A stretch of DNA of 57,369 nt, counting the filler, from Sphacelaria rigidula (Eukaryota), in NCBI GenBank assembly GCA_964200075.2. It is 5 parts of 5 records of this genome, joined end to end, with 100 filler letters (N's around TTAATTAATTAA, not from the genome) between each part and the next. Parts side by side here need not be neighbours in the genome. Positions count along the whole stretch, not along the records: positions 1 to 11,396 come from CAXNAA020004970.1; 4 more parts are not named here. The stretch is one strand, 5' to 3'. Shown here in pieces: positions 1 to 45,977 of the stretch (position 1 is the stretch's first letter; the number at the start of each line of letters is the position of its first letter). The translations under genes and the position numbers were made by a program. The notes below the pieces were generated by a model. That model was not told the origin of the DNA. It did no database searches and saw nothing but the letters and a program-made list of their open reading frames with translations.

Positions 1-139
1 GCAGACTAGGCTCCTCTCTCTGGGGTGATGCAAAGTGTCCGAGACGTATGCTGGCGATTTTCCCTGTTTGGGGGTCAAAAAGTGGCTCAAATGTACCAAA
101 AGTGAACAATCCGTGGGCCAAAAATCTGTTTGCCATAAC

Positions 140-800
140 ATCCAGCCTTAGACCACGAAACTTTGCAAAAATGTATGAGTCATCACGCAAGTTTAGTTCA
201 ACAATGTTTTTCTCCTTGCATTTTTTACCGTTATTCGAAGGTCCGACGGGATCCAAGTCGTTTTTTCGAAGTCGTCCATTCTGGGTCCCCGGAAAACCGG
301 CACTACGATTTTTTTTTCAATTTTTTCGAAAACGCCCTGTCGCCTCAAAACCCAAGGAAAAGCCCCACAAAGGTTCGTGACCAAACGCGATAAAGTGATG
401 CTTGAATTTTCATGTTCAAGTCAAAGAAGGCCCCCAAAACGCTTTTCACACTAAAATCTAGTAGTTGGCGGTCTCACCGTGACACGGCGAGGTTCATCGC
501 ACAAACGCGAAAAACTTCATGCCGTTTCAAGGAGTTAGACCCTGAAGGTTTGCACAGGTGTTTTATGGTTCATTACGCAACGTTTGAATGAACGAGGTTT
601 CCGATTGTTGTCGTTATTACCGTTTTACGTGGGTCCGACTGGACCAAAGTTTCCCCCAAAAAACTGGGACCCCTGAAAAACGGCGAAAAAAGTGAAACAT
701 TAACATAACACTCGACCTTGGAAAGTTGCGTCATGACCCATAAAACACTTGTGCAAATTTCAGGGTCATACTCCTTGACCTTTTTGGGACGGACCCCCCA
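140..800. repeat. Subterminal repeat array with inverted repeat, probable DNA-transposon end
   Basis: 527-585 (TCAAGGAGTTAGACCCTGAAGGTTTGCACAGGTG...) is inverted against 722-778; a further direct degenerate copy lies at about 145-195. Confidence 0.6.
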
Positions 801-1189
801 CTAACACAGGCTTGACCCTGCGTTGGTGAAACAATTAAGAACAAGTCTTCGAGCGACCAGACCCGAACGGCCAGCGCGGGGATTGTTGGCGAGTGTGACG
901 CCACTGCGAAGATCGTGTGGGGGCCCTATCCCTGGCCCAGATAAGCCTTCCCAGGTTTCCAAGTGAAGGGCGGTCGGAACTTGGTTATATGATATCACTT
1001 GCACTCAGTACAGCGTTCCCGAGTTTTCCGGTGTTTTTTTTGGCTCATAATTTAATACTAAAACGTAGTAATTACACAAACACAAGGTCGACCGGAAACA
1101 AGGGGAAGGAGTGTACATGCTACAATGTGGTCATTTTCACGAAGCACTAAACCCAGGTGGGCCGTGGAAAGACAAGAGGAGCTGCCGTC

Positions 1190-1550
1190 ATGAATTCTGC
1201 TTGTGCAGTTGACATGCATGTAGTGGGCGGGGATGAAGAAGCGGTATATAGGCAGTTGATCTCGGTAGCCGAGAATTGCCCAGAACGTGCAAGGGGGTAT
1301 GCAGGGGCAGCTGCTGCTTCAGTCGGAGAGGCGTACTACACTGTACTATACTGTCTGTTGTATGCATGTGCCCCGCAACGCTGATATCCTTGCGAAGCGA
1401 ATTTGCCGTATGCAACAAAGGGGGAAATGGGGGCCCACCCCGACCACAAAGGGCTGTGGGACAAGATGATGAGGACAAAAGTATCATCCAAAGCCACAAG
1501 TGACGGGCGGCCCGCCGGTCTCCGCATCATGTCGGAAGCTCTCTACCGTA
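1190..1550 (+). pseudogene. Possible Academ-like transposase core remnant
   Basis: HVVGGDEEAVYRQLISVAENCPER...VGEAY resembles V.T.DQ.LY...I....PE...G.FH; GLWDKM...LRIMSEALYR resembles SGL......R....EAL.R; frameshifted. Confidence 0.3.
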
Positions 1551-4500
1551 ACCCATGCTGCTTGCTAAATCAGATGTGCACCGCCCAATGCGCTGCACCT
1601 GAAAATGAAAAAGATGAAACTTTCGGTCTTCATCATAACCCTGTGGTTACATACGCGGATTTTCAGCAACACGCCACTGTTTCGCTTAGACGCCAGACAC
1701 GTCATTCCTGACCAGCCTCATTGGTCGTTCTGGACGCCCGGTCCCAAAAGGGTTCAAGCGGCGTGAAGTTTTGCCGATGAGTGTTTTTTGGGTCTTCTCG
1801 ATGAACCAGCCTGTAGGGTAGCTAGCCAAAAGATACTGGTCTCTCGCAAGATCCTGCTACGAGTACAGTGGTCCAAAATTGTCGACGCGATCTTTGATCG
1901 ACATAATTTTCGACGGCTTGTCCGATGGTGGCTTTGCTATAAAAGGTTTCAAGGAATCAAGGGTTGGTTGCAGTTAATTCTGGTCAATTAACTTCGTGCT
2001 GAGTGCGCAGTAGTGTTACAGTTGTAGCACCGCCCACAAGGGAGAGGCTCGGTTGAGCTTGACTATGCGAGTTATTACGAACCGTGTGGTACTCGCACAG
2101 TAGTGCAACATTGTCGACCCAAGTATATCTTTGCAGCTGCACCGTCGAAAACTTCGCCTGTGTTCTATTCGCCACAGGGCAAGCACTGGCGAGAATACTG
2201 GCTCAAACAGTACAGTGTTGCGCCGAAAAACGAAAAACGAAACAGAACCCGACCTCTTTTCACCCCGGTAGGCACGCACACACGGCGCAACCCCAGATTC
2301 AGCAACATGAGGTTGTTGCCTGTGCTATACATGACATGCGGCCGAAGTTTTAGCGCGTAGAAGCGCTGACAGCGCGTGCACGGCCGTACCTCCTGAAGTG
2401 AGAATCTCTACAGGAGATACGAAGATGAGTACCGCGAAAAATGTTATCATCCAGAATGTGTCCCAATACAGATCGATGTTTCTTTGCCGGCGCAGAAGCC
2501 GGCCAGTAAGTCATGACGAGGAAGCGAGCGCACTCGCGCATCAACACATGCATCCACGGACGTCTCACGCAGTCTGGGCGGCGGAGAGGCCTTGTTGAGA
2601 GCGTATCGACGGTATTGCCCAGAATCCGTATTCGCTTTGTGCTTCTTGCGCACACCCCAACACGTGCCGCCGAACGGGGTATATGCTGCATGTGTTGTGC
2701 TCTACCCCTGTGCCAAGTGTCAAGCCGGTTGGTTCGGACACGGTGGCGAAATCCATAAAGTAACGCTTCTAAAGTGAAAAATGCAGTACTGAACCTGCGA
2801 AAGATACATGAGGTGCGGTTACGCCGCATATCACCGATGCGGTGAGCTACCGTCAAACTACCCGCACCCCTTCGGCGACCCACCACCGAGTACGATGACA
2901 ACAAGTGCAGGGTCCGCGAGCGCGTCGCGTCTTGGGTGATGTACCTCACCCTCAGATGCTTTCTCGTTTCAACGTTGTCTGCAGCACAAAACACTGCGGA
3001 CTGAGGTATCGCGCAGATGCCAAGTGGCGCGCGTGTGTGGATTTGTGTCAACGCGGATGGTGCAGTCGATGCTTGCACATAATTCGGGGTTAACAAACGC
3101 CTACTTTCTTATTTCTTCGTTGTATTCACGGAAAATATCTCGGTTTGACCACTCCTGGCGTGTAAAAAAAGACTTGTTGAAAATTGCCTTGTTGGCCCTT
3201 CCCTGTCGTATTTCGCCCGAAAATGAGGTTTAGACGGATGTTGACACCTCGGAATGATTTGATCTGTTCGTTGATACCGTTCCACGGCACTTTTCCCGTT
3301 TTCCCTGTGTCACGGTTCTATTTGTGGCCGAACTTGCAATCTTAGTACAGTAACAAGCGGTCGACACATATAAAAAAAACGAAACATTTTTTTTTTTTTT
3401 TCGTTTTATACGTTGATCGGTTGTTACTGTATTGAAATTGCAAGTTCGGTCGTTAACGAAACTGCCACGTACAGAAAACGCGAAGGTGCTCTGTTTTTTT
3501 GTTCTTGTGACGTGACCGCCCCTGTCATTGAGAATGCAGGTTCGGCCGAACGAAAGTGTTGTGGGGATTATCAAGGTGCTCTGGAACGGCGCCGACGAGT
3601 AAAGCTCGTCATTCCGAGGTGCCAACATCCGCCCATCTCTCTTTTCGGGCGAAAACCGGCGGAAAACGCCATAAAAGCCCTTGCCAACAACATATATTAT
3701 TCTACACATAACAAGTGGCCTTGGAATCGGGACTTCACAGTAGGACTTTCGTCAGACTTTGCAAAAAAGAAAACTGTAGGCATGTCGGTTATTACAGTCC
3801 TGCGATAACGAAAACATGTGTAGAGATCAACGCCGACAGAAGGCAGTCATAGCGTGCTTTTCCAGCTGGTACCAGCCCCGTTATGGTCGGGACCTTCACT
3901 GCATACGTCTCCGAAATTTACAACGAAAACAAAATCAAAGCCAGAACAATACTGTGATATTGCATCGCAACAGATCAGGTCACTGATACATTTTTGAGGG
4001 ACTGAAAACGGATGACTTTCGCAATCTAGCGCCGAAATTAGTTTTTGTTCCACTGAGTAACATATTTGGAGAAGTCTACACAAGAGCCGGTATCTCTTTC
4101 AAACAAAACGCACAGTATATCCGGAGGAAGTACCTGTCATCAACACTCAATACCCTCATGTTATGACAACTGTATGCTTCATAGCGGCGGAAAGTTCAGG
4201 CCGTAAAACCGTCCGAGGAAATTTCGATCGCCGACATCAAAACGGACGATGCGTCGGCGTCGTTCGATACCCAACTAATCGTCGCACTTTCTATGGAAAA
4301 CAACCGAGAGGATATCGCGCCCATCGAACCCTCCACCGCTGTCGCCGAGGGCACATCTACATTTATTGCTCGGAGACATCAAGCGCATAATGTGAACGAC
4401 AACCGATCCTTTAATGGCCCAAGATTACATTCTACAGTGTACATAGTCTTCATCCATCCACACTGTAACCCGTGGCAGCCTCACACTCGGGGTTCGCCGT

Positions 4501-5369
4501 TGGTGCACCTGAGGAGAAACGAAGCGCGCACGGTGACAAATAGACGTACAGTGGGTCAACGAGATTGAGTCGTGTTCCATTCGTGTACGGGGGGGGGGGG
4601 GGGGCATAAATCACCCTAGCATGGGAAATAGGCCGTGGCCGCCGCGCAGCACACTGATCAACAAAACCCGGATGAAACACCCNNNNNNNNNNGGTGCAAG
4701 CAATGGGCGAGGAGCGTGGGCGGGGCGGCGGAAAGGGGGGCGGGCGCAGGAGCAAGTGCCATACATCACCCTAGCATGGGAAATAGGACGTCGTCGCCGC
4801 GCAGCATACTGATCAGCATAAACCGGATGCAACATGCTCGCGAATTTCCCACGAGATCCAGTTTTCCGTTGCTCACACAATGGCAGCTTCAATCATCTTG
4901 TAGAGCCACATTGTGCTCCCCTTGTCCAACAAAACCCCAGATTGCAACACTAAATTTACTCCAACCCCTCCGCAGCCCCATCCATCCAAAATAATACCCC
5001 GGAGTATCAAACATGATCATTATTCTTCGAGATTGCGGTCGATGTACGGGTATGAGGACGATACTAAACGAAAAGGGAAAACGGCGGATAACTCTCGGCG
5101 CGAACCTGCTTCGCCGAATCTCTTGGTATCATACCTGTGCGTTGACCACCCTCACGCATCGATCACCCGTTCCGAGTATTATCCCACTACGTGCTGGCCC
5201 GCGTCTCCGAAGCACATGACTTCTCCAATGGGATGCCACGATGACACTCACAGTCTTCACCCGCACTCACCCCTGCTTCGTCGCCGCTGTCACCTCCGGA
5301 TTCCACTTCATCCGCCACCACTACTCCGAACCCTTCGCTAACCGGTACGCTTTGCGCGTCGATAGCCGG

Positions 5370-6698
5370 ATCGCACCGCCCCTTGCACCCGTACATTGTG
5401 GAGTGGTAATCCTTCCCCAGCTTCGCGCACTTGTAGCTGCGTTTGCACCTATCTTTCTCGGCCGCCGATAGGTTGAACCCGCACAGAAGACGGTTGATCT
5501 TCCCCATGGGATCAATGCGTGCGTGCGTTCTCAGACATCGTATTCCAGCCGCGATTGGTTGAAGTCCACGTCCGATGGACATTGCCATCCCCCCCATCCA
5601 ATATTCTAACACAGCTCCAGCTCGCTGCGCTTGGAAGCGAAGGGCATCCGCGGGCGGCACGAGGTCTGTTGGCTTCCTACCGCCCAACTTTCACCTCGAA
5701 AATCTGACCCAATCCACGAAAAGTGTAATGTCTGCCCCCGCCAGTTCGTGCAGGATTTACTTTGCGCTGGTGCCGGCCGATTCCTGAGCCAGGAGCAACT
5801 CCATCACGGTGTCAGCAGGCACGGCATGTTCCTGCGCATTCGGCGGAGTCTGGTGCAGATTATCCTGCTGCCGCGAGCTGGATATCTGCGAGACTTCCGG
5901 GCGCCACCTGCTGTCGGTGGTGATGACGGCGGCGATGAAAAAATCGAGGGGGGTTGGCCACGGCGATGGTATGGAGATAGTCGAGTGTGTGCTGGACATG
6001 ACCTCTGTGCGTTGCGTTCTGTCGAACATGCATGGGGGCGTTTCTTGCATGTGACCATTCCTCCCTGAACACCACCCACACCGGGCACATGACCTGAGAT
6101 AACCGTAGGCAGAATTACACGACATCTACCCACCCCTCCGCGAACGTTGCAAGCGCCTGCCACTTGGAATGGGAAATACGCGGGCTTCTACCGTGGTTAA
6201 GAGGAGCATCTACGAATATCCATCCGCCCTTGGGCGGAGTACATGGTACATGATGGAAGCTGAAAAATATAAGGTTATAGTCGATGTGATGAGACATATT
6301 CGGGATATCTCACCGGTGTCCCAGGGGTGCGTGTGTTGTCCTTCGTGAAAGAGCTGGCCTATCGCCCTGGGATCCCCACGGCGCGTGTCCATTCTCACAG
6401 AGCTGCGAAAAAGCGGCACGATGATGTAGGCAGGCACGGTTGCGCGATCGAGTGCGACTGTCAACATCACCCATGTAGTGCCGATCCGTCTCCGCCGCTC
6501 AACTGCCTACATACATGGACATTCAGCATGTATTGTACCCGCCGTGACCCCCACATGAACGACGCAGAAAGCCGGTGATTCCTTGGGGAACATTGGAGGC
6601 GACATGTTTGCGCCCAAGAGTAACAGCGTGAAGATAATGTAGGGCCTGAACCATCGTTGGACACAGGCGTGCTGCGCGCGTGGGGGGCACCCCCATTG
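5370..6698 (-). pseudogene. Academ(X)-like transposase C-terminal remnant (XPG/PIN-like region plus Cys-rich CxC tail)
   Basis: Ordered motifs NGGA (DGGA), LTVALDR..RRG, NH(V)EA (needs a 1-nt shift), HELAGADIT (HALSGCDTT), LVPPADALRFQAQRA..W (LPPT.DAL..H..RA..W) and LLCG..DRCKRSYKCAKLG..GCKGRC; stops and frameshifts present. Confidence 0.6.
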
Positions 6699-6777
6699 AA
6701 CATCAGACAATACTATACAAAGGGGTGTCCGCAAAAACGAGATTCAACTCCAAGACAGTGCTTTCCCCACACCTACA

Positions 6778-7327
6778 TTTGATTCGATTTGATGGATTGA
6801 TTGATTGTCGCACTTTGACTGACCCCCCAGGGATCCAGCCGTGGTCACATCATAGACGTACCCGAGACAAGACAAAACTGGAACACTTGCTGAAGACAGA
6901 GAAGGCACAGAAAAGGTAGAACGGGACAACATACTGTTGTAGACTAAGGCCGCTGCTTGTAACAGACAAAAATAAAAATCTGGAAAAGTGCCTTTTTGGA
7001 GCGTCTGAAAAGAAAACAAATAATAAAAAGGAGAAGAAAACAAAAGAAAACAAAAGAGAATAAGGAAATGGCCGGTCTCTGCCACATGGCTTCGGGGTAC
7101 AAGGTCTTGCGCAAAACCACACTCATACCGAGTCGTAGAAAACAGAAGGCCGTGGGAAGGAAAACACTGCAGTTCATCTACTACAAACGCTTTATATTGG
7201 GTATGGACCCTCTTATTCACGAAGAAACACAATGAAAAGGGGTACCACACTGCTTTGCCATACGCCGGTCAGGAGAGAATACATATATAGCGAGAAAGAT
7301 GGGGAAAAGGGAGAACAGGGAAGGAGA
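6778..7327 (-). mobile_element. 5'-truncated non-LTR retroposon (LINE/SINE) 3' end
   Basis: Minus strand ends CCACGGCTGGATCCCT...TCAGTCAA...(ATCA)n; flanked by CTACA direct repeats (6773-6777, 7328-7332); similar tail at about 55610-55681. Confidence 0.65.
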
Positions 7328-7594
7328 CTACAGAAGAACTCAGTGACTTTTTTTATGTTTGGCATCACGCTCCTCAATCGCGTATATACTTTTCTAGAGC
7401 GTTTTACCGACTCTTGTGAGTTTCCATCGTTAAGCGGAACCCTCATTGGTTTCGTTGATTTATTTGGGGGGGGTGGTATCAGGGGTAGGCGAGGGTTTTG
7501 TTCAGTGGTGGAAGCTCACAGAATCGGTAAAACGCCCTGAAGAACTATGTACGCGATTGAGGAGCATGGTGCCGACATGAAAAAGTCGCTGTGA

Positions 7595-8849
7595 GGCTAC
7601 TTCTTGTGTATTGAAAAAACATGTTATCAGAAAAGCCCTTCTTCAACAACACGTTTTTCAACATAACTTTTCAAAGTAGCCCTTCTTACGTGATCGACGC
7701 ACTATCAACATTGAAAACGCAGTGTTCATCGTCTTCTATGAGGTGTGCAGGCATGATTTCAAATTCTGGGGCGCGCGAGAGAGACGCAGCACTCTGCTGT
7801 CCTGTCGTGGTGTACGGTCCGTACTGACTGTCTGTACTACTGTGATACATTGCTTGAGCAATACATGGTGGACTGCGTGACGCAAGCCATCAATAAGAAC
7901 ACCGCCTTGCTGCACCAACTGACTGTAGAAGTGACGGTTGTGCTTTTCTACTGCACGGTAGTACTTGACTGAGAGGACAACACGGACAACAGCACACACA
8001 ACAGTGCTCTATTGCATGCATCGGCTGTAGTACTGCAACAGTAGCACTGTTCATAGTCTTGTGTCTACTGTCAGTACGGTCCTGTATCTACAAGGCTTGG
8101 GTGCGTAGGCAGCCCGTAGTGCAAAGCGACGTCTGTTCGCAACACGCTGCATGCACAGATCTCAACTAAGCTGCAAGTTCGCTGCACTGTAGTACTCCGT
8201 TGTACGGGCAGCACAGACAACAGTACAGACACCACTGTTGTGTTGTATGCGGTGGATGTACTACAGTAGTGGCACCACCTATCTCATAGTCTTGTGTGTA
8301 CTGTCAGTCCGGCCCTGTCTCTACAAGGCTTGGGTGCGTGGACAGTCTGTAAAGCATTGCGACGGCTGTTCGCAACACGCTGCGTGCACAGACATGAACT
8401 GAGCTACAATATTGTACTGACGACATACAGCATAGACTGTCCTGTTTGTACAGCAGTCGTCATCGACCCTGCCCTCTGTTGTTCTCATGGGGTGAAGGGC
8501 CACCACGCTACTAGCGGGCGAAGGGCAATGATACAACGCACTGATTGCCCGCGAGCGCCAGCGATAGCAGTAGTAGTGATGGCAGCCAAGCTATCACAGG
8601 TCCTGTCGTGGGCTGTATTGTGTGTTCAAACGTGTTCAAACGGGGTTCAAACGCTTTTTCGATAAATTTTTTCGATAGCTAGAGGTTGTCGGAAATCCTG
8701 ATTTTCTGATAAATTTGGGCGATCGAAAATGTTATCAGAAAAAATTCTATCAGAAAACGCGTTTTCTGATCACATAATAAGTGGGTTTTTGGTGATTTAT
8801 CAGAAGACGCGTTTTCTTATGAAGGTTTTGTAATTAATAAGAAGTAGCC
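7595..8849. mobile_element. PIF/Harbinger-type non-autonomous element
   Basis: TIR GGCTACTTCTT / AAGAAGTAGCC; 3-bp flanks TGA/TAA; subterminal TATCAGAAAA motifs at both ends. Confidence 0.65.
8051..8410 (+). repeat. Internal tandem duplication, 233-bp offset
   Basis: TCATAGTCTTGTGT...CTACAAGGCTTGGGTGCGT...GTTCGCAACACGCTGC at 8051 and 8284. Confidence 0.85.
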
Positions 8850-8923
8850 TAAGTGTGGGGAAAGCACATTTTAGGGCTAGAGCCTCATTTTTTAGACCAA
8901 CCTCATGTCTACGATCGGCTGTT

Positions 8924-9700
8924 ATTAAGATGGACGTGGGGACACGTTGATATCATGCCCCACCCCTCCAGACTGCGTTCCCACCACGAAAACAGCCGGC
9001 ATGAAGACAGGCTTCATATAACAGCTGCCCAACCAATGTGGACTGGCGCCAGAACACTGGTGGTTAACTCGTCCGCTGCATGTGTGCTTGGACAGTCGAA
9101 CATTACAGCAAGCAGCAATCATGGTACACCCCTCCAGGCTGCACGGCACAGGCGCTGCAAATAAGACGGGCGGATCGGGGTGCAACGCGTGTTGCAGCCC
9201 GAAGGCGATGGTGTGGGCGTGTGTGGTCACCCTTCGACGTGCCATGAAGGTGTCCATGTCGAGTGCAGTGTACAGCATTGTAGCGAACAGCACGCTACAG
9301 TACGCTTTTGTGTATACAGGTACTCGAGGACAGTATGTTACGGTACAGTGAGTGCAGCCCAAAACGTACCGTACGGCAAATACAGGACAACTAAGTACTG
9401 TACAGTAATTTCAGTACAGCAAGTACAGAAGCGTACAGCGGTGCATGGCAGTGTATGTATTGGAGCTCATGAAGAAACTGGTGCACTCGACGAACTTCAG
9501 ATCGTTCAACTTCACCACCAGGGATGCCTGCGGATCATCGTGTCGTGTTTCCCACGCACCAAACCGTTCGACGCAGTTCTTTCCCCGATGGAATCTATAC
9601 ATTATGGGCAACACCGTACGCGTGCCGCAGATCCGGCTGGTTCTACGTGGCCGACACACATCGACATGCCATTGTGCCCGCAGCACACGAGTACACAGCA
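8924..9700 (-). pseudogene. Upstream part of the same Academ-like transposase remnant
   Basis: RGKNCVERF..KLNDLKF and FGLQHALHPDPPVLF (cf. F.HEL.P.PPSLF); joins 6694 to read HVHLNGGAPH when the foldback and one TSD copy are removed. Confidence 0.55.
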
Positions 9701-10453
9701 ACGCTATTTATACCACCCAACGCGTTAATTGGTCCCCTAAACGTCATCTTTCCAGCCAGGGATCAGCCCCGATGCTTCCGCTTTGAACACAGCTTCCCAG
9801 CGGTGTCCCGTGTTGGACCGGCACTCCTTCGTGGGGAGCTCCCCGGTCGTGTGAAGTACGTTTACTTTGCGGCTAGTTCCACCCGAAATGTTTCACTATG
9901 ATTCTTGTATGCGGGCATTTTCGTATTTTCGATTTTATCTATTTTGGTGCAACACTGCGAAGGTAACATATTTCGGTGTCTATGCAAAGGTCATTCTTCA
10001 TTCATTCCGGTGTGCAATCCATGTTCGATCCAGAACTCACTCTTCACTGGCGACAGTGTACTGAGATGCCACATATAGTCGCCCTTCAAGAGCAGCTATT
10101 GTGACCTCACTGCCATGCATACATGAAAAACAAATGCGATACTTGCAGAAATGTGACGGTGTCTAGCTCAGGGTTTTGATTCCCAAAAATATTCACTGAC
10201 GGGACTCGAGGACGTAACAGCTATGGCAGCTATTTTAGAACAGCTGTATGGGACAGTTTGAATTGCTTCGGATCGGTGTCTGTGCGAAGAGCTATCGTTC
10301 ATAGCGTGGGTTCGATCATTAAGAGGTGAAAATGCGGCAATTCCAAGTTGATACAAACCCAAGTTACCAATATGCCCCATTCCTAGTCGGCTGTTGTAAC
10401 TTGATTTTGGCTGCGCGTTTTTTCCTTGCGTAGCTGCACGGTTGCGCAACCTC

Positions 10454-10477
10454 TGTTGTTGTTGTTGTTGTTGTTGT
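10454..10477. repeat. (TGT)n microsatellite, possible retroposon (ACA)n tail on minus strand
   Basis: Run of about 8 TGT units. Confidence 0.7.
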
Positions 10478-11396
10478 CTTCACATTAAAAGCCGTTCCGA
10501 TATCTGCGCGGTACATTGGTACTGGGCATCTTATGCGGACGCCTTCCGTGGTCACAGGCTATACGCAGGAATTTCCTTACGAGGCGCGGGTACAGTGCAA
10601 TCGCGAGTACAGTACGGACCCGCTGATAAGATATCGGCTCAACATCATGTAAGGCTCAGAAGTGACGTGTCGAGACACCCCCAAGAAAAAAAACGGGGGG
10701 CACGAATAAAAAACGGCGAAGTCTATGGTTCCCACAGAAACACGGGCACCTCACAAGGATGCGGTACAATAGGAAACTGCATCCCCCCGTCTTTCCGTGC
10801 ACCGTGGGTCGGAGGGACCACATTACTCTAGACCGCGGGCCTGAGAATCTCTTTGTGTGATACAATCTCTTGTTTATCCCATACTGAAGATGCGAGCTGT
10901 TCCGTTGACCGCGTTGCCGCACGTATGTATCCGTTGTGTTGCGAATCGGTTTCGCGGCAACATGTCTCTCCAGTGAACTCATGGGCTACCCCGTCTGCCG
11001 GCATTTCTTGCTCGAACAACAACAAACGTCGCGAAAACGTCGGTCGGGAGTGACGCGCGATGAATGAATCCCCTCCAGTTGTCGCGCGACGACCCCGTCA
11101 CTCGTTTCGACGCTTCACCTGGTTGTCGATCGGATACACTTACGGTAGCTGTGTACTGGAAACATGCAATGTGGCGGAGGAGTGCCAACTTTTATAGCCC
11201 ATGTTACTTGAGATGCTGAAACTGCTGCTTTTTACGGGTGCTAGAGAAGCACCTCGAGATACAAGACCAAAACAAATGTATATAGAGAAAGGACGGCTGT
11301 GCGAAAATCGGGAAAGTGTTCGCCCCTCTCCCCCCCCCCCCCCCTCCGAGCCTTGTTCCGGCGGAACCCAGGCGTCCCCGCTACCGCTTTTGTGCG

Positions 11397-11496
11397 NNNN
11401 NNNNNNNNNNNNNNNNNNNNNNNNNNNNNNNNNNNNNNNNTTAATTAATTAANNNNNNNNNNNNNNNNNNNNNNNNNNNNNNNNNNNNNNNNNNNN
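11397..11496. other. Artificial scaffold-concatenation linker (N44-TTAATTAATTAA-N44)
   Basis: 100-nt spacer with stops in all six frames; identical design at four places. Confidence 0.97.
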
Positions 11497-13799
11497 GGAT
11501 CCAACCAGATGTAAAGAGGCATGTTTATGTATTCCGTCTCTCGACGGATTTACATAACGCCTCACCCCTGACTGCGGTACTAGCCAGTCCCGCAATCAGC
11601 CCTCCGGGCGCGTAAGTCGTTTTTAATCGACGGCCCATCATCGTACTACCCTTATCCACCACGCCACACCGCGATCCGTAACAAATGTTGTGGCATTTGG
11701 TTTCATGAACATACTGGGTATACCGCGGCCGATCGCGTACCCATATATTTGATGCACACCTGTGAGGTGCTGTTCACAAACGTACCGGTGTGCTCAGGTC
11801 ATTTTCTTCGGAACAAATCCTCACAATACGGGCGTATGCGTTCAAACCGTCGTCCTCAACATCGCCATTCGCGCGGTTCAAACAAGCACCCCCAATTTGA
11901 TGTTGTAACCACGGTAGTGATCACATGGATCTCAACCCACAGTGCATCAGTCGTATTTTTAGGCTTACGCGCAAAGGTTTTCGGCCTAAGCCTACCCATA
12001 TCTCATCCTCGCGCTTTGCACCCGTATGCACGGGGTCCACCATAAGACGGCATACGCCCCCTTGTGATTGGACCTCGCACAACGGTTGAGCCCCGCCAGA
12101 TTGATTTCTATCCCTCCACTGATGCTACACGCGCTACTTGACGATGTTTTGGAAATGATCAGACCCCGTGTTATCAAATAAGCATACAGTGGAACGATTC
12201 AGGGTGCACCACTGCCTCAAAATTAGGCCGTCATCTTCTGCCTGTTTTGATTACACTTCGCGTTCATTCCTCAATGTCTGCCACAGGCCCACATTAGGGA
12301 ACCAACGATTGAAAGTATCCCCCCTTTTCTTTCGCTCGGCCAGTAGACACACATCACAGAACTGAATCAATGTCGTACGGCACAGGTTGAGGTTTATGGT
12401 GCGGATACTCTGGGCTCGACCAGACTGTCATAATGGGTTCCATGGCAGCAGAATCCCGAGTATATTCGCATAACTCCCAATTGCGCAATGACCAACCCAA
12501 GTGTTTCAATTCTGGAGCTGATCACCTAGTTTGACCCCAAGTGATATTAATCATAGCCAGTCAGATCCTTTCTCCTCGCGGGATCGGCAGTCATGTAGTG
12601 TTACACCTCCCGTCCCCGAAGCAGGAACATCTTTTGGCGCGGTAGCTGTTACCCCTGCGACCGCTCATCGTAGGAAAATAAAATCATGACCACACACCAG
12701 GCCCCAAACAGGCTCAGGTACCAAGCCGACCCCTGTTACACCCACGAACGAAATGACGTCGGTGCCCGGTCCCCTTTCGTTTGTTGAGCATAATTTTCGA
12801 GCACGGAGCGCAACCATGTCGAACCCGGCTTTCCGTCGCTCAGCGGGATGGGAAGGAAACCCAAGCAACAGCGCCGGTGGAGCGCCACGAGCGTGACCGA
12901 GGGCGAACTGTCCTTGATCAGTTCCCAATAATCCCCGGAGCAGCCGAGGCGTTGGTGCGCTATACGCGTCACCCTCGGCGGGGTCCTCCGGATGACACTG
13001 TAGATATCCCTGACGACGCAGTTACACCCGTTCACAGAAGTCGTGAACGGGTGTGGGTTTCATTAGATGAAGACGATACTGTCGTTCAGGCCGCTGTTTT
13101 CCAGATTTCGAACAGATCAGCACTGCTCCCTGCCGACCCCTCACATACTATGTTAGAACCCACCACCAGAATAGCGTTGTCATCTCTTGGGTCGGATAAC
13201 TCGCGGCTAATTGGGCGTTCGCCTCCTCGTCATGAAAACCCCCCGTCTGAGTCTTCATCACAAGGAAAACATAGCGTAGTGACCGACGAGCCGTCCACGC
13301 TTGACCGCTCGTCCCCTGTTTTACCAATGTTGTCCCCAACTAAGACGGGTAGCGAATTGACTTGTGTAGCCAAATCGTCGTCACCCTTTCCCGAAACGTC
13401 CCTGCGTTAGCCCGTACTAGATGCTGTAACCTCGCCAGCTTTGCAAACTGACGCTTTGCTACTTGTTGCGGCCAACCAAGGTATCTCAAACCAAACGCAA
13501 CAGTTGTCGCGGCCAGCCACGACAACTGCCCTTCCCAGGCATCGTCCATTCTTTACAGCATACGAAATTCAACACTAGACAGATCATTCGCCAACTGCGA
13601 CCGAACCTCCGTTCCCCAACCACCTTAGGACAAAAATCTTGCTCCAAAGGATGATCAGCGTGTGTATTTCACCACAGCCGCTCACAACCACAAGCACGGT
13701 TTGTTCACAGATTTCTTGCCAGACTTTGGACCGGATCTAGTCAGCGGTACTGCAATCATGGATGATGCTTCGTTCAGAACAAAAATAGGTGTACAAAGT

Positions 13800-16700
13800 G
13801 GAATGCATGCAACATGCCCTTTATTAGCTGTTGCGTTGCCCGATTCAGGCTCAGGCTCGCCTCAAACGTTCATCACCGCCAGCTGCTGGTAACAAATGAT
13901 CAACACGGGGGCTGCGGACACGCATTGCGTTTCTACGCTTTCCCCCCGTGTTTTCGGCGGGTTTGGTGCTTCCGCTTCACTTACGGTTGACCGACCAGTA
14001 AGACGTAGTGTGTACGTTTTCGATGACACGGGCCCGACTGCGCAATTATCCGTATGGATTCTCATAGTGCTCGATGGTACCATGTCGGTTGATATTTCGC
14101 TGGGGCGTGATAGTTGGCTACGGTTTTCTACTCATACATACACGTCAGACACACCTGTTTCGCACCATCCCAAGAATGGCGGGTTGAAATTGGGATATCA
14201 CGACACTGCTTCGGGGGCGCATGCCTATGTTGATGATTCAACACAAACAGGTGACGCTCTCCGACTGTACTACGTTGGCGAAAACGTAACCTCCTCATCC
14301 CTTAAACCTCAACTCATGCATGTGAACCTGGTGAGACGGAACGGGTCCCCTGCCCTCACTAGGCAATACTTGGTCGAACTCATCAATCCCAATCAACCGG
14401 CCGATGATGTAGGTGCCTTCGACCAGACCGAAGTATTCGTTAACGGAGGTAGACAATCCAATCCTCTCACGTCCTCTGCATGTTTCGATATACTCCCCGG
14501 TCAGTTGTTAGGTTTTGCTCAGGCGCCCCTCCTACGAACAGGCTCGTCAAACGTGTGTCTGGCAACCGAACGGAAAATGACACCAGACACCTCGATCAAC
14601 GCAAACTCTCCGCCGTTAGACACACCTCGCCCGATGGTCGTGGACGATGCGTCTCACGCACCTGACCCAACCCCCCCAACTGCATTGCTAGATAGATTAT
14701 AGCCAGAGCAACGTGTTAGTTTCCAACTTTGATGGGACGGTATCCCCCCACATTTGCGACATATTGCTTTTGATCTATCTGGCGAGGGTCGGACTCCCAC
14801 GGTGATCGATAGGCTCCGCATCATTTTGATAAGTTATTCTGAACGGCTCTTCAAAGCGCCCGTAGATCTAGGCCGCTGCACCACTACACCGTCAAAATCA
14901 AATTTCCTGATGAAACCACCCATCGCTACCCGTCCGTACCGTACAAACCCCCTCTTAGCGGATACAATTGAGTTTATCCTCGACGGATACTCATCCGCCG
15001 GTTCAATACGGCACTCGACGTCCCCGTGGGCCTCGCCACTTGTTGTCGTTCGGAAAAAGAACGGTAAGATCAGACTGACGGTCAATTACCGACGACTGAA
15101 CGAATCACCAAAACCGCACGTCTACCTCTTCCCCGGATAGATGAAACCATTGACTCTATCGGCGGCGGTAAAGTATTTTCGAACTTAGACATGCAGTCCG
15201 GCTACCACCATCTTGTGATGGATCCGCAATCTATAGAACTGACGGCGTTGTGTACACCGTCAGGCCTGTACAAATGGTTGGTAACACCTCAAGGTGCCGC
15301 CGGCGCCCCCGGGGCATTTCAACGTGTTATGTTTCGTGTGACCGATGGGTTGTCCAAGTGCCATATGTACCACGATGACGCGGTCATACACGGAAGCACC
15401 CCTTCCGAACACGTCGAGCACTTGGCATCTTTCTTCGCTCGCTTCGGACAACACAACTTGAAACTTGCCTCGTCCAAATCCCGCTTTGGATCGACTAACA
15501 TCGAATTCCTGGGCCACTGTATCACTCGTGAAGGTCGTAGTCCAAACCTCAACAAGGTTGCCGCACTTACAGATATTCCCATGCCACGGAATATATCTCA
15601 ACTGTGCTCCTTGCTCGGCGGTTTGAGCTACTACCGACAGTATTTGCCGAACCTAGCCCAAATCCTCAAACCTCATCACCTCCCTTCTCAAAAAAGGAGT
15701 GAAATTCGCGCTCACCTCAGAAGTGGAGAAAATAGTGCGTCAACTACTTGACAACCTTTCGCGACCACCAATCTTGGTTTTCCCAGAATGATCGGCCGCT
15801 GAAAATGGTTCACATCCATTCCGACTTCACACGGATTCCTCCAAAATTGGGTTTGGCTGCACGTTGGAGCAGGAACAACCAAATGCTAATATTCGCTCCA
15901 TTGTATATTTGAGTCGAACCACCTACCTAAACAAACAAAATTGGTCGGTCATGGAGCAAGAGGCCCGTGCGATTGTTTGGGGAGTGAGACGTCTCCGTCA
16001 GCACTTGTATGACATTCCGTTCGTGATTTATACAGATCAGAAGTCCTTAGGAAACCTCGCCAAAATGGCGGAACACAACGCCTAGGTCCAACGCTGGTTT
16101 GAAATCCTGTCTTCTTACAACTTCACGCTGAAGTATCGAACAGGACCTCGAAACGCAGACGCTGATTTTCTGTCTCGTTTGCCCGTCCCGGCCCAACCCA
16201 TCGACAGGTCCGCGCTGGGATGTATCATGGATCTCACCGAAGATGTCGTATATTTCATCAGCAGAAACGGTCATAATGGAATCTACACACCACTCTGACT
16301 GAACATCAACTCGTCACTTGGCATGGATGGGCTGACGACTACAGCTCACGCTTCTGTACTAGGCCGTATGCCGCCACAAACGTTGTGTTCAGTTTGGAGT
16401 GGAGCTAGTACAAACCCGAGCGGGTATGATCATTTCCGTGTAACTGGTCATCGTATGGTTCGTGCCGCAGATGTAGAACCATCTTGTGCTGACTTCATCC
16501 TCCCGGTTCAAGCGCGAAATTTCATCCCGAGTAGAACCCGGGGACGGCGGGCCGCCGAAACGGCCACCACCCTGGCGGCCTCTCACCCGGACCTTCCCAT
16601 CCCAAGCCCCATATTCGGTGCCCGATAGTTTGCTTGCGCCCCCTCAACCACCGCGGCACGAGGCCCTCAGAAGATCGACTCCATCCACGGCACCTCTTCC

Positions 16701-19396
16701 TCCCATATCCGAAGCCTCGACTTTGCCCCCCTTCCCCGGTGATGATGTACCGGCTGGTGCCTCATCATCCGATGCGCTAGTCAACGCAGGATTCGAAGAC
16801 AATGTTCCGCTTGAAAGTACACAAACTGATCCCCCCGCCCATGATCCAAATATTCCTGATTCGAGTCAACACCGCCGTGACACGAACCCATTTATTTTGG
16901 ACAAACCGTCGGATAGTGTGTTTGAGGAACGTTTGACCCTTCTCTCCCACGCCGATTGGGCCAGGGAACAACAAGCTGAAGCTGCTTGTAGAGCGGCTAT
17001 GCATTATATATCCAAAGGCTGCCCGTCTCCTTTTCCAGCAACCCAATTCCTCTTGCCCGTTGGGAACCACAAAGCCCCTACACAGGATGAAGTTACTGAA
17101 CTATCGCGAAAAGTTATGCTTTATACGGATGGTAATGGTGTCGTTCTCTTAGTTCGCCGGCCCACAGCGCCCCTTCGTGTGGATAAACCTACCAGTAAAC
17201 ATGCCTGTTTGTTAGGTGATGATCCCACACGAATGTATGTGCCGATGCTTCTGCGTCCATGGGCTCTCCGTGAGTGTCATTCGCAAGCATCGACACATCT
17301 GGGAGTTGCTGGGACCTCCCAGATGCTTGAGCGTTTTTATTGGTGGATTTGTATGGATCAGTGTGTACGTTGGTGAGTGAGGCGGTGTCTGGTATGTCAG
17401 GCGCGAAAACCTTCACGTCAAACAGTTCGTTGGCTGATTGTTTCCATGCCACTCTCAAACGTGCCTGGTGAAATAGTTTCGTAGGACTATTTTGACCCCT
17501 TACCCCTGACGGATAGCGGTCAGGAGTATTTTTTTTTGTTTACAGATAGATTTAGTAGATATGTGGTGATGCACGCCGCCCCTGCAAGTGGCTATAGCGC
17601 GGAAGGTACCGCCAACATTCTTGTACACGCGTACATTCCGCAATCGGGTGTGCCCAAACGTTTCTTGTCCGATGACGGCCCGCATTACGCTGGCAAACGT
17701 TCTGCTACGATCAGGACCCTCCTGGGTGCCCATCGTATTTTCGTTGGCTCATACCATCCGTCCACAAACGGTGGGACCGAACGAGTGAACCATACGATGG
17801 CTCAAATGCTTCCAGCGATAACCAACAAACGACGAACAGACTGGGACTTGCATCTGCCCCTTGTTCAGATGAACTACACCAATTCAATCAATGCCGCGAC
17901 GGGGAGAGGTCCGAATGAAGTTCATATTGGTCATATGCCCAGATTGACACTGACGGTGTTCGAACGGAAGCCTTACGGGAGCCATCAAAGTTTGGATAGG
18001 GATATCGCGGAGTACCATATTTCTGTTAGTAATCGTCTTCGCCTTGCGTATGAGGTGGAACGCGACGCTAATGCCGAGGTAGCCCTCCCACGAAAAGTGC
18101 ACACCGGAGACCGTCCGGTGAACCGGCTGCGATCCCACTATTGGGCTCGTTTGCAGAAATTCCACCCACATGAGAGGCGTTTAGCAGTCCAAAATCAGCT
18201 ATAACGCCCAAATGAGTCGAGTCGTAAGGCTCAATACCAGCTCTGACAGCATTTATGATCATCGCCTCCGTGCACCGTTTGGGCAGGTTCGGGGGCGGGC
18301 TATCTCGGCAGCAGTCGCGAGCAGAACCAAATCAAAGCAGCGAAAGTGGCCAGGGTAAACACCGTGTTGGATGATGCGGTCAACAACCGTCCGGTGTGAT
18401 AGGTAGATCAATGGGCATGGGTGTACAAGGATGTGAAGACCGTAACTCAGGAGGCTAGCTCCAATGAGTCGTCGTTGGATAAGGTGTTGAAGTCGAAACT
18501 GTCCTTGAATTGAACTGGCGCCTGGAAAATCTTGGCGGTTGGGTCCTGTGATGCCGCACCCGACAATAGTCTGGTAGGCGAGAACCTTTTGTATTTGGAT
18601 TTTCCCACTGATAAACCTGGCATCAAACCCAAAAACCGAGTATCGATGCTTAGGTGTAAACCGTGTCTGCCCCCGCATGATACATCCGACATGCCCAAAC
18701 AATTACCAATGGGTCTCAGTCAGTACGTACGTGTTGACCAACTATGCGGCCACCCCCCCCCCGTGTCACATGACGGATGGAGATGCCAATGGCCCTCTTG
18801 AGCGAGTGGTAGATCGCAGCTCGGGCCATCAATTAGTTCGAGGTCGAGGAGGTAAAATAGCAGTCATGTATCAGACCCATTGGAAGGGTATCATGCGTGT
18901 TACATGGGAACGAGAGGTTGACTTACGTCACTTTTGTCGGGAAATGTTGCTGTACTGGGTAGGAGATGCCGTCCAACACCGCCCATTGAATAAGAGATAT
19001 CGGTCGATGCGCAAGGGAGCTGCCGCTCGGGAACTGGCACGAGAGCACTCGGCGCGATTTGCCGTATCAGGATATAGCTTTCTCTCGCGTTCACAATACA
19101 TGCAGTCTTCTCACGGACAACGTTTGCCGAAGAGGGCGTATTTTTGGTACAAGGCTTTGGATTCACTGTGGTTGTTGGGTAAAATTCCTTGGGTCGATCC
19201 TACTTCTGACAACTCCTACTTTATCCGTTTCCTCGATGACCCAAGCCCCCTTAAGATTCGCTTGGATGATGCCTACTACACCGAGGTGCCGACCGCTCGC
19301 CGAGGATCCTGGTGCCTCCAAGGACATGACCAAGGCGATCTCGACGCAGCCGTTCTACGCAACGCGGACACCGCTTGGGATGCAGAAGGCTCATGA
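13800..19396 (+). pseudogene. pol: gypsy pol pseudogene (protease, RT, RNase H, integrase, chromodomain, C-terminal extension)
   Basis: ALPDSG and LGRD (PR); PWASPLVVVRKKNG, DMQSGYH, PQG..GAPGAFQR, YHDD (RT); HTDSSKIG, YTDQKSL (RH); H..HLG..CLVC, LSDDG, TERVN (INT); YQTHWKG..TWERE (chromo); many stops and frameshifts. Confidence 0.93.
18065..18315. mobile_element. MITE of about 250 bp inserted in integrase of copy 1
   Basis: Imperfect TIR TGCCGAGGTAGCCC / GGGCTATCTCGGCA; CGCG on both sides; removal restores EVEREQNQI, matching copy 2 EVVREQNQI. Confidence 0.8.
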
Positions 19397-22890: not shown

Positions 22891-22990
22891 NNNNNNNNNN
22901 NNNNNNNNNNNNNNNNNNNNNNNNNNNNNNNNNNTTAATTAATTAANNNNNNNNNNNNNNNNNNNNNNNNNNNNNNNNNNNNNNNNNNNN
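22891..22990. other. Artificial scaffold-concatenation linker
   Basis: Same N/TTAATTAATTAA/N spacer. Confidence 0.97.
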
Positions 22991-30900: not shown

Positions 30901-32976
30901 TGTTGATGCAGGCAGTGTAGGCCAGTCCCCTTCTGTTCCATCTTCCCCGTCTGTACCGTCTTCGCCCGTGACCAACTCCTCTAGTATAGTGGCTGCCTCT
31001 GTGTCTTCTCTAGCACTTGAGATAGACTTGGGGGGGCAGGGAGGGCAGGAGACAGGGGAAGTAGAGACGGCGGATCCGGGAGGGAATGATGAGGTAACGT
31101 CGATTGGGCCGGGAGGGCATGGTGATGTAGAGTCGATTGGGCCGGGAGAGCAGGAAGAAGAGGCGGAGGCACCCCCTCCAGCCGCTCGTCGTCTGCGGCA
31201 TGTCGCTGAGCTTGCTGATTTTAATACTGCTGCGCGTGAGAATGATAAAGTAAGAGAAGGTAGAACTCGTGCGAAAACCCGTGCAGTTAATCAGCAGAGC
31301 GTGTCTGGCCTTGTGACCACCCTAGGACCCATCTCCGCATCAGAGATAATGTACGCACTCATAGCGGAACAGGGAGCAGGTGACGTCGTGGAATTGCCGA
31401 AAGAACTCGTTCAGAATGTTGAGTCAGAGCCTGGTTGGTAGCTGTCAACAAGCCCGGCAATCGAAGCACGCAAAGATTTGGGATGGAGCCGTGTCTGCAG
31501 AAGTTGAAGGCTTGATAAGAGCAGGAACGTTCACGTTGGCAGTAAAGATCCCGGTAGGCTGCAATGTGATTGATGCTAGATGTGTTTTCGAATAGAAAGC
31601 AGACGAAACACGGAAGATCGTGAAGGCCAAGGCTAGGCTTGAAGCGAAGGGCTTCAAGCAGATGGTGTGGACTATCTCGAGACTTTCTCGCCTACTGCAA
31701 ATGCTGCATCGATGCGATTACTAGTAGCGTTGGCGTGCAAGTACAACTTGGAATTGCTCCACAGGGATATTGAGCAAGCGTTTGTTCAGTCGGAATTGGA
31801 TCACGAGGTGTTTATGAAGTTGCCTCCTGGCTGCGGTTTGATGTCAGGAAAGGTTATCCGTTTGAACAAGAATTTGTACGGATTGAAGCAGGCATCTAGA
31901 ACACTTTACAAGAGGCTAGTGTCGGACCCGAAAAGGATTGGTTTCGAGCAGTCTCTGTCTGACCCCTGTATCCTGCGTTTCATGATGGGAGACGAGGTGG
32001 TGGGTATGGTCGCGATTCACGTGGATGACATTCTGTATGCAGGAACCAAGAGTCTTGCCAAGGTGGTAGTGAAATCGCCAGGTGACTCTCTTCCTACGAA
32101 GAATTTGGGTGAAGTCAAGTTCTTTCTTGGTTGCGCATTTATTCGCGACCGCAAGGCTGGCACGACTGAGATTTCTCAAGAAAGTTACATGATGAGTATT
32201 CTCGATAGAATTTATATTTGTCGCGCCAGCTCGATCCCTGCTTCCCTTGCCAACGATATCAGGTCCTTCATGGAGGATAAGGGGGCAGGAGATGTGCCGT
32301 TCCGAGAGGTGGTGGGGAGCCTGTATGGATCGCCAACCAGACAAGGCCCGACATCTCGAATGCTGTGCGGGCGGTGGCGAGACACTCTCACGAGCCAAAG
32401 AAAAGCCACTGGAAGGCAGCCCAGAATATTCTGAATTATCTTCTGGAAACGGCGCATCTAACTGTGAAGTTCAAGCAGGACAGTACGGTAGATGTAGGCA
32501 CGTTGGTGTACGTAGATGCCGACTTTGCAAGCAAGGCCACTGACCGTAGATCAGGTTCGGGAGCGTTGGTTTTTGTGGCTGCCATGCTTGTAGTTTGGAT
32601 TTCTAGGACGCATAAATGCGTTTCACAGTCGACTTCTGAAGCAGAGTATCTTGCGATGGGTGATGGTGTGTAGGAGGCTCTGTTTGTGAATGGAATGCTT
32701 CAGTTCTTGAGGCCTAGTGTGAAGCCTCGTAAGATTGAGATACTTGAGAACAACGAGGGTGCGATTGCCCTTGCAGGAAATCCGCTTAGCTTGTGCAGGA
32801 GTATACACATTGACGTGAGGCACCACTTTCTTAGGAATTTGACCGAGGAGGGTGTGATCGAGATCACGCATGTTCCCAGCGAAGAACAGCATGCGGACAT
32901 CCTCACGGAGGCTCTGCCGAGGGATCATTTTGAAGTTCACCGTGACTGTGCTCTTTGGTTGATAAATGAGAAGTAA
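27910..32976 (+). pseudogene. copia gag-pol pseudogene
   Basis: WYADMGTAFHMT (PR); HSHE..CTGC, VFVDL, RSDNGGEF, NGVAER (INT); YGLKQASR, HVDDIL (RT); YVDADFA, STSEAEY, HIDVRHHF, ADILT (RH); multiple stops and frameshifts. Confidence 0.95.
28168..28370 (+). repeat. Tandem duplication in copia gag leader
   Basis: GCCCAAGGCTTAGGCGTGTCCAGCATGCAGGTTGGGAGTAGTAGTCT at about 28167 and 28284. Confidence 0.9.
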
Positions 32977-34384: not shown

Positions 34385-34484
34385 NNNNNNNNNNNNNNNN
34401 NNNNNNNNNNNNNNNNNNNNNNNNNNNNTTAATTAATTAANNNNNNNNNNNNNNNNNNNNNNNNNNNNNNNNNNNNNNNNNNNN
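34385..34484. other. Artificial scaffold-concatenation linker
   Basis: Same spacer. Confidence 0.97.
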
Positions 34485-37993: not shown

Positions 37994-38407
37994 AACAGAG
38001 GATTCTATAAAATGAGATTCATCAATGAAATGAGGTTCGAGCCCACAACAGTGCTTTCTCCACACTTTCAGCGATGGTGACCAATGGCTTTTTTGTGGGC
38101 CTAATGCCCCTCGATCGCGTAGATACTTTTTCAGCGCATTTTACCGACTCTGTGAGCTTACAGCGCTGACCGAAACTGCTGTTTTCCCTGATATCACCCC
38201 CCTAAAGAATAAGTAGAAATGGCGGTTTCGGACAGCGCTGTAAGCTCACAGAGTCAATAAAATGCGCTGAAGAAGTATCTACGCGATCGAGGGGCATTAG
38301 GTCGACAAGAAAGTCATTGGGCACCATCGCTGAAAGCGTGGAGAACGTACTGTTTTGAGCTCGAACCTCATTTCATTGATGAACATCATTTTATAGAATC
38401 CTTTGTT
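37994..38407. mobile_element. Intact 414-bp foldback element in RT of copy 2
   Basis: Inverted arms of about 190 bp, AACAGAGGATTCTATAAAATGA...TCATTTTATAGAATCCTTTGTT; perfect 4-bp TSD AACG; removal restores YQRLYAVTK. Confidence 0.93.
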
Positions 38408-45877: not shown

Positions 45878-45977
45878 NNNNNNNNNNNNNNNNNNNNNNN
45901 NNNNNNNNNNNNNNNNNNNNNTTAATTAATTAANNNNNNNNNNNNNNNNNNNNNNNNNNNNNNNNNNNNNNNNNNNN
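45878..45977. other. Artificial scaffold-concatenation linker
   Basis: Same spacer. Confidence 0.97.

Follow-up and report, generated by a model that had tools for sequence, protein, structure and literature searches.

Transposons of the AcademX group reportedly combine a transposase with an XPG nuclease and a Cys8 finger. AcademX elements are described as encoding a nuclease and making 3-4-bp target duplications, and this accessory nuclease has been suggested as linked to the short duplications (PMC10045372); Academ elements are said to be expanded in bivalves (PMC10294476) and most abundant in rust fungi, with no Pfam model for them in 2017 (PMC5751038). The locus that is the subject of this analysis lies at ~4.9-9.9 kb on the minus strand of a 57-kb window of DNA from the brown alga Sphacelaria rigidula ("the window" being the whole stretch analysed, 57,369 nucleotides, filler included). 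It was originally predicted to be a fossil Academ-like transposase, with XPG/PIN nuclease and Cys-rich parts, recoverable by removing nested insertions. On balance, though with no great confidence, we take it to be a moderately repeated unit, present here as a dead copy that keeps the 3' end of a transposon-linked nuclease gene and was later split by an element with terminal inverted repeats (TIRs). Nothing in the locus is functional today. The window is made up of five pieces of ~11.4 kb, separated by spacers of the form N44-TTAATTAATTAA-N44 (11397-11496, 22891-22990, 34385-34484 and 45878-45977), so that features of different pieces are not necessarily genomic neighbours; the locus sits in piece 1 (1-11396).

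When the nested insertion (2229 bp with one copy of its target duplication) is excised, what remains is one 763-codon frame on the minus strand, broken by 6 stops, and only its last 190-210 codons (~5250-5822) have relatives. These belong, with E values of 1e-39 to 1e-10, to a protein family of stramenopiles and brown algae, and what they match is the family's C-terminal module, consisting of the RFQAQRAGAVLEYW helix region and a cluster of nine cysteines. The remnant in the window (5250..5822, minus strand) comprises the final helices of the nuclease fold together with a beta region and that cluster. A read-through of 6692-5190 with X at five stops (P0001), compared with 1.84 billion proteins by phmmer, yielded 11 matches (E 6e-31 to 3e-4), all inside residues 304-496; residues 1-303 have no relatives among those 1.84 billion. 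In the opposite direction, tblastn of relatives on the window aligns P0013 over 217 amino acids at 41% identity (E 5e-39), P0004 at 69% and P0002 at 59%. Alignment of P0001 with a 16-sequence family profile by hhalign gives a probability of 98.7 (E 3e-16) for residues 305-443 only, and a six-frame scan of 1-11396 with hidden Markov models (HMMs) has its sole match at 5295-5771.

The module is decayed. It is interrupted by two in-frame stops (TAA at 5757-5759 and TGA at 5691-5693), has internal deletions of a few to ~20 residues by comparison with its relatives, and retains five of the nine conserved cysteines, the second having become Phe and the fourth, sixth and seventh Tyr. In the relatives the cluster has the pattern CxC-x9-C-x3-CxC-x7/8-C-x4-CxC-x3-C, which matches nothing in Pfam, the Tesmin/TSO1-type CXC domain included, either in the window piece or in the relatives; the sole weak signal is a metallothionein-like one in P0017 (E 0.018, below cut-off). 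The frame ends with a stop codon at 5187..5189 (minus strand), and the likeness to one relative continues beyond it: residues 110-151 of P0005 match 5148-5023 in another frame. As the match to P0005 carries on after the stop, the repeat must take in a 3' non-coding tail that the two share (5023..5186, minus strand).

Among named relatives, those closest to the locus are database entries titled "unnamed protein product" from three brown algae, S. rigidula itself, Scytosiphon promiscuus and Ectocarpus sp., which makes the stramenopile host guessed in the original prediction a reasonable one. The nearest (51-71% identity) are short fragments, several of them decayed or chimeric gene models, and many cut-off, paralogue-like entries of 62-78% identity lie on separate long contigs. 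P0003 has lost Cys residues; the model of P0011 is a chimera that starts as an antisense reading of the RFQAQRA region, that of P0006 another chimera that starts in a different frame of the same repeat, and that of P0009 has an intron-like N-terminus. It is from the many cut-off, paralogue-like entries, the chimeric gene models and the shared 3' non-coding tail that a mobile and relic character of the family is argued. Two further searches brought in longer members, of 575-785 amino acids and, in one case (P0018), 1802. Their alignment displays successive acidic motifs (H-x-[IV]-D, Y-D...P-I-K, G-I-G-E-[GA]-E, S-V-D-T-D-Q and G-C-D-F-L-P), after which come an R-A-G-A-V-L-E-Y-W region and the nine-Cys cluster. 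No Pfam domain scores above cut-off in these longer members; XPG_N, XPG_I and XRN_N are unmatched in 21 family proteins at E up to 1 or 10, and searches of PDB sequences with the family profile and with P0018 returned nothing meaningful. Pattern searches of metagenome contigs gave 70 matches with family alignment A1 and 35 with P0016, and of viral contigs 51 with A1, none of which was confirmed. A search of the literature, with Repbase lying outside it, found no description of the family in stramenopiles.

The relationship that sequence comparison misses is brought out by structure prediction. An AlphaFold model of P0020, made with the 16-sequence alignment, has a predicted local distance difference test score (pLDDT) of 71.9 and a predicted template-modelling score (pTM) of 0.72. 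Residues 53-529 of the model superimpose on EXO1 with Z 16.6 (275 residues aligned, root-mean-square deviation 3.7), and the matches to XRN2 (Z 15.6), XRN1 (15.5), FEN1 (15.0), XPG (13.7) and Rad2 (13.0) follow; the top Foldseek match is XRN1 (6.4e-8), and all of these matches are effectively tied. The PIN-like alpha/beta core with helical arch and helix-three-turn-helix motif is present in the P0020 model (Z 13-16.6, with 250-350 residues aligned) and not detectable in the window copy. As modelled, the family falls among the PIN-like 5' nucleases of FEN/XPG/XRN type, for which "XPG-like" is a fair description at the level of the fold. The original prediction was right to connect the Cys-rich tail of the locus, and the two motifs before it, with an XPG-type nuclease: in the family to which all three belong, intact members have a PIN-like nuclease of XPG/EXO1/FEN1/XRN fold.

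Also correct was its proposal of a nested 2.2-kb insertion with a short target duplication. A composite, non-autonomous TIR insertion of 2225 bp occupies 6699..8923 (minus strand; termini AACAG.../...GATGTT). Its ends pair as ~75-nt imperfect inverted repeats, with a score of 21 over 90 nt that none of 500 shuffles reached. The upstream copy of the target-site duplication is TAAT (8924..8927, minus strand), its TAA constituting the junction stop in the long frame; the downstream copy is CAAT (6695..6698, minus strand), which reads Gln in that frame, and the junction with CAAT retained reads Ser-Gln-Trp. Both junctions are bridged by identical, own-locus contigs in three sequencing runs. The spacing between the two copies, 2229 bp, is 3 x 743, so the long frame is unchanged from one side of the insertion to the other. 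The TAAT/CAAT duplication is that of the nested insertion and not of the outer element.

The interior of the insertion is a patchwork of repeats of very high summed read depth. It contains an inverted repeat (7594-7618/8826-8850), a direct tandem duplication of ~230 bp and 77-85% identity (7951-8176/8182-8409) and a very abundant core (6797-6867). A 65-nt inverted repeat within it (7350-7414/7520-7584) is similar to a stretch at 38088-38312, which belongs to a different piece. The core at 6797-6867 and a second short repeat outside the insertion, at 10300-10561 (both on the plus strand), are very abundant, with summed depths of at least 1e5 vs ~10-30 for unique DNA. The two have a common 3' core (6839-6858 and 10546-10565, 80% alike); other copies continue beyond 6867 as A-rich tracts and beyond 10561 as unlike sequence. 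They resemble elements of the short interspersed nuclear element (SINE) type or others with poly-A tails; ARAGORN finds no tRNA-like gene in 1-11396.

The outer unit is itself repeated. Depth was summed in 224-nt bins over contigs of at least 80% likeness from three DNA-type runs and one possible RNA run, a quantity that is not the same as copy number. It is 290-1950 over 4924-6715 and 8956-9851, with the exception of one bin (6044-6267) at 123-298, falls to 85-263 at 9852-10075, and is 8-31 in the flanks (10076-10299 and 10748-11195). Similar repetition on the two sides of the insertion fits a single unit of ~4.9-9.9 kb, or ~2.7 kb without the insertion. Depth in one run, X6, is uneven (high at 5148-5595 and 6268-6491); since the RNA status of X6 is a guess, this is not counted as evidence of expression.

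The original prediction depends above all on the codons upstream of the module. All of the motif peptides that it listed are found on the minus strand, and seven share the long frame: VERF (9561-9572), HALHPDPPVLF (9159-9191), TVALDR (6444-6461), DFFIAAV (5925-5945), HELAGADIT (5724-5750), LVPPADALRFQAQRA (5619-5663) and the Cys-rich tail (5373-5447). Of the other two, HL-NGGA does arise on excision, when 8924-8938 is joined to 6677-6694, but in a frame different from that of the seven, and we have discarded this junction motif as evidence; NH(V)EA is present at 6180-6201, but is split over two frames and needs a frame change. A proposed intron, GT(9436)...AG(9295), is rejected: its flanks are in the same frame and its length of 142 nt is not a multiple of three, so that removing it would disrupt a frame that is already continuous across it.

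The frame can be divided into three. The upstream part (8928..9707, minus strand; 260 codons) contains one stop (9411-9413), has no relatives and is of random-like composition; a CTGTAC-rich stretch of low complexity lies within it at ~9290-9470. Its first ATG (MYRFHRG..., 9582..9602, minus strand) follows a nearest in-frame upstream stop at 9708-9710. The middle part (5823..6694, minus strand; ~290 codons) contains three stops, and homology to the nuclease core is undetected in it; the C-terminal module follows. It could be supposed that the whole 763-codon frame is the decayed full-length XPG/PIN-plus-Cys open reading frame (ORF) of an Academ-like element, with a core that has diverged or mutated too far to score. 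The 6 stops in a single frame that runs across the excised insertion speak for this: the other two frames of the spliced stretch have 22 stops each, and 1000 simple shuffles give 29.5 +/- 5.2 with a minimum of 15. So does the raised G+C content of third codon positions (GC3, 0.60-0.63), which extends through all three sub-regions of the frame and is not seen in the insertion or the flanks. Support for the openness of the frame is nevertheless uneven, since, of 1000 shuffles that preserve dinucleotides, 3 have as few stops as the 225 codons tested upstream (1 stop) and 81 as few as the 249 codons tested in the middle part (3 stops); elsewhere in the window, frames that match the former in openness make up 2.2% and those that match the latter 6.6%.

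What makes a full-length ORF quite unlikely is that every test for the nuclease core comes out at chance. On the window, the HMM built from the nuclease portion of the family reaches -2.9 bits, which 59 of 500 shuffles equal or exceed. A gap-free ordered chain of the family's nine most conserved blocks scores 60.0, vs 62.4 +/- 7.8 for shuffled sequence (182 of 300 as high or higher), whereas two family members left out of its construction, P0036 and P0018, score 326 and 358. With free frame changes on DNA the same chain reaches 86.2 vs 80.9 +/- 8.5 (22 of 100 shuffles as high or higher), which disposes of a nuclease core hidden by frameshifts. The ordered nuclease motifs of the original prediction are accordingly no better than chance by any of these three measures, and its XPG-type nuclease ORF shrinks to the last helices of the fold, the upstream 520-575 codons standing at shuffle level against the family core. 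The check that had been named beforehand, a collinear profile match for the spliced translation, finds homology confined to the C-terminal module. With six stops, decay ought to be mild, yet of the seven acidic positions that the family conserves (D, D, ExE, DxD, D) not one can be identified in the translated window; faint look-alikes, which count in favour of a full-length ORF, are TVALDR or, in the one faint stretch that hhalign finds in the upstream 260 amino acids, YTALDMDTFM vs the family's SVDTDQWM (E 0.075, probability 0.75%). Were the latter match to be taken, the DxD would lie elsewhere than had been proposed.

The composition of the upstream translation tells the same way, being close to what its bases would give if translated at random (K 1.3%, D 3.2%, E 2.9%, C 5.1%, H 4.4%); that of the C-terminal part is protein-like (K 5.6%, D 6.6%, E 6.1%). 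A language-model Atlas gives the stop-free 161-residue upstream ORF a recognition score of 1055 vs 2300 for typical real proteins, with a best match of 0.81 that is at chance level, and searches of PDB sequences with this ORF and with P0001 produced nothing meaningful. Pfam scans of 10 ORF pieces and two read-throughs of the region yielded nothing above chance, and no transposase. The claim that a transposase had been recovered does not survive: tblastn with the 1802 residues of P0018 over the 57 kb finds nothing at E<1 outside 5589-5756.

The dead-copy account would run as follows. The parent element would have carried a gene for a transposon-associated 5' nuclease with a beta module and a 9-Cys cluster. 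The window copy would have lost the nuclease core, or never carried any; most likely it goes back to a non-autonomous derivative that had an internal deletion or a 5' rearrangement and retained the 3' end of the parent. Stops, deletions and the four Cys-to-Tyr/Phe changes would have accrued afterwards, and the 2225-bp composite TIR element would have inserted later still, duplicating (T/C)AAT. In the intact family, a 5' flap or 5'-3' exonuclease held on DNA by the zinc cluster might trim DNA ends, or fill the same role at gaps, where a DDE transposase has cut. The mobility of the family, its Academ-like nature and the origin of the window copy by deletion are inferences; what the data show directly is the homology of the C-terminal module, the fold of the family, the insertion with its TIRs and target duplication, and the repetition of both flanks.

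Several observations weigh against this account. No TIRs or target duplication were found for the outer unit: between 4693-5200 and 9700-10300 there is nothing beyond 9-nt chance matches, and a scan of 3000-12000 found none, the boundaries being resolved to ~200 bp. No joint across the insertion, of the kind that an empty-site paralogue would give, is among the 15 of 453 joints listed, which is no proof in either direction. The DFFIAAV motif (5925-5945) lies 51 residues before "VM", the same spacing as GCDFLP has in P0013, and by that token homology may reach to ~5945; as judged from this spacing, DFFIAAV is possibly a remnant of the family's GCDFLPAI motif, and it falls where a full-length ORF would have put it. 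That the frame stays so open upstream, with 1 stop in 225-260 codons and a raised GC3, argues that this part was once coding and not mere filler. Finally, the equation of DUF6589 (PF20231, IPR046496) with a transposase and with Academ, taken up below, consists of two Pfam matches below cut-off and a concordant spread over taxa.

The open upstream frame, which the dead-copy account leaves unexplained, could reflect an N-terminal region that is novel or evolves fast, or else older coding sequence from a different source. A bolder and unlikely reading would have the family constitute an undescribed stramenopile/brown-alga lineage of Academ-like elements that unites a DUF6589-type transposase with an EXO1/XRN-fold nuclease and nine cysteines, all three of them without a Pfam match above cut-off; in the sub-lineage represented in the window, the nuclease core would have been replaced by a new N-terminal region of 560 codons with the frame kept.

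What kind of transposon the parent may have been is suggested by two of the family's gene models. In P0018, a DUF6589-like region lies upstream of the nuclease (residues 685-935, E 6.3e-5, 22.3 bits against a cut-off of 27), and the Ectocarpus protein P0036 has another (residues 33-93, E 0.031, 13.4 bits, also below cut-off). In the Atlas, residues 380-1080 of P0018 adjoin DUF6589 clusters of Mollusca, Basidiomycota and Arthropoda with scores of 0.89-0.91, which serves as a lead only. We found no published assignment of DUF6589 in the papers searched, where it appears solely in a passing mention: one rust preprint lists it as enriched. A search of 12 of the 33 supplementary files to PMC10294476 gave no match to DUF6589, PF20231 or XPG. 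It may be that DUF6589 is how a transposase family, possibly Academ, shows up in Pfam without being recognised as such, and an Academ parent with an AcademX-like layout is plausible on grounds of architecture and taxon spread.

The family might belong instead to another transposon superfamily that recruits 5' nucleases, for example a KDZ/Zisupton-like or Harbinger/ISL2EU-like one. KDZ elements have CxC clusters, which resemble the three CxC pairs of the family, and the lack of a published assignment leaves room for such a placement of DUF6589. We consider it very unlikely: P0018 and P0036 match no KDZ, CxC, DDE_Tnp_4 or any other transposase model of Pfam at E up to 10, and the Atlas clusters with DUF6589 likeness come from Mollusca, Basidiomycota and Arthropoda, Academ being expanded in bivalves and rust fungi according to the reports already quoted. 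Least probable of all is that the locus is a pseudogene derived from a host family with many copies, which would encode a cellular 5' nuclease bearing a zinc cluster and have no part in transposition, since the stand-alone 575-785-residue members on contigs up to 919 kb, the undetected TIRs and target duplication of the outer unit and the lack of an adjoining transposase here are set against many cut-off, stop-ridden or chimeric copies, a shared non-coding tail, repeat-level depth, a retrotransposon-rich setting and a DUF6589-like fusion in two species.

In itself, the locus is an ordinary genomic fossil in repeat-rich DNA. It leads, all the same, to a transposon-linked 5' nuclease family with a Cys cluster that is carried by brown-alga and stramenopile genomes, that domain libraries have missed, and that public annotation breaks up into "unnamed", chimeric or spurious small gene models. 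It also illustrates that plausible runs of motifs in an open frame can be due to chance: only three or four of the nine motifs are real here. If the family does turn out to be Academ-like, the range of that superfamily would be extended, and its intact sequences would lend themselves to testing the effect of an accessory 5' nuclease on short target duplications.

The surroundings are of the same repetitive kind. Decayed long terminal repeat (LTR) retrotransposons, recognised by their Pfam domains, are abundant across the window: a Gypsy-type reverse transcriptase (RVT_1, E 4e-24) with Integrase_H2C2 and rve at 15068-18201, a Copia-type reverse transcriptase (RVT_2, E 1e-32) at 31643-32431 and a second Gypsy-type integrase at 39648-40736, all three of them decayed. 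Piece 1 has a G16 homopolymer and C-rich runs near both ends, plus a (TTG)n microsatellite (4588-4604, 11324-11348, 10455-10478), and a 75-nt direct repeat (4605-4679/4760-4834) on either side of a 10-N assembly gap. Downstream of the relic lie two minus-strand open frames with no Pfam match, of 252 codons (2350-3108) and 173 codons (3230-3751), and a 73-nt inverted repeat (3221-3293/3573-3645).

Of the known systems, AcademX is the one that the relatives of this locus call to mind: intact members have a large upstream region with weak DUF6589 likeness, a nuclease of XPG/EXO1/FEN1 fold and nine conserved cysteines at the C-terminus, and the window retains the tail of that arrangement, its cluster being a possible counterpart of the Cys8 finger. 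Unlike in AcademX, a transposase is absent from the window and a nuclease core is not detectable there, the termini and target duplication of its outer unit have not been found, and the family makes no Pfam match to XPG_N, XPG_I or XRN_N. From EXO1/FEN1/XPG (Rad2) and XRN1/XRN2 the family is distinguished by an identity of 10-16%, with no sequence match to PDB chains or Pfam, and by its additional beta module and Cys cluster. What it has in common with these nucleases is the fold and the acidic series D, D, ExE, DxD, D, and of that fold the copy in the window keeps the last helices.

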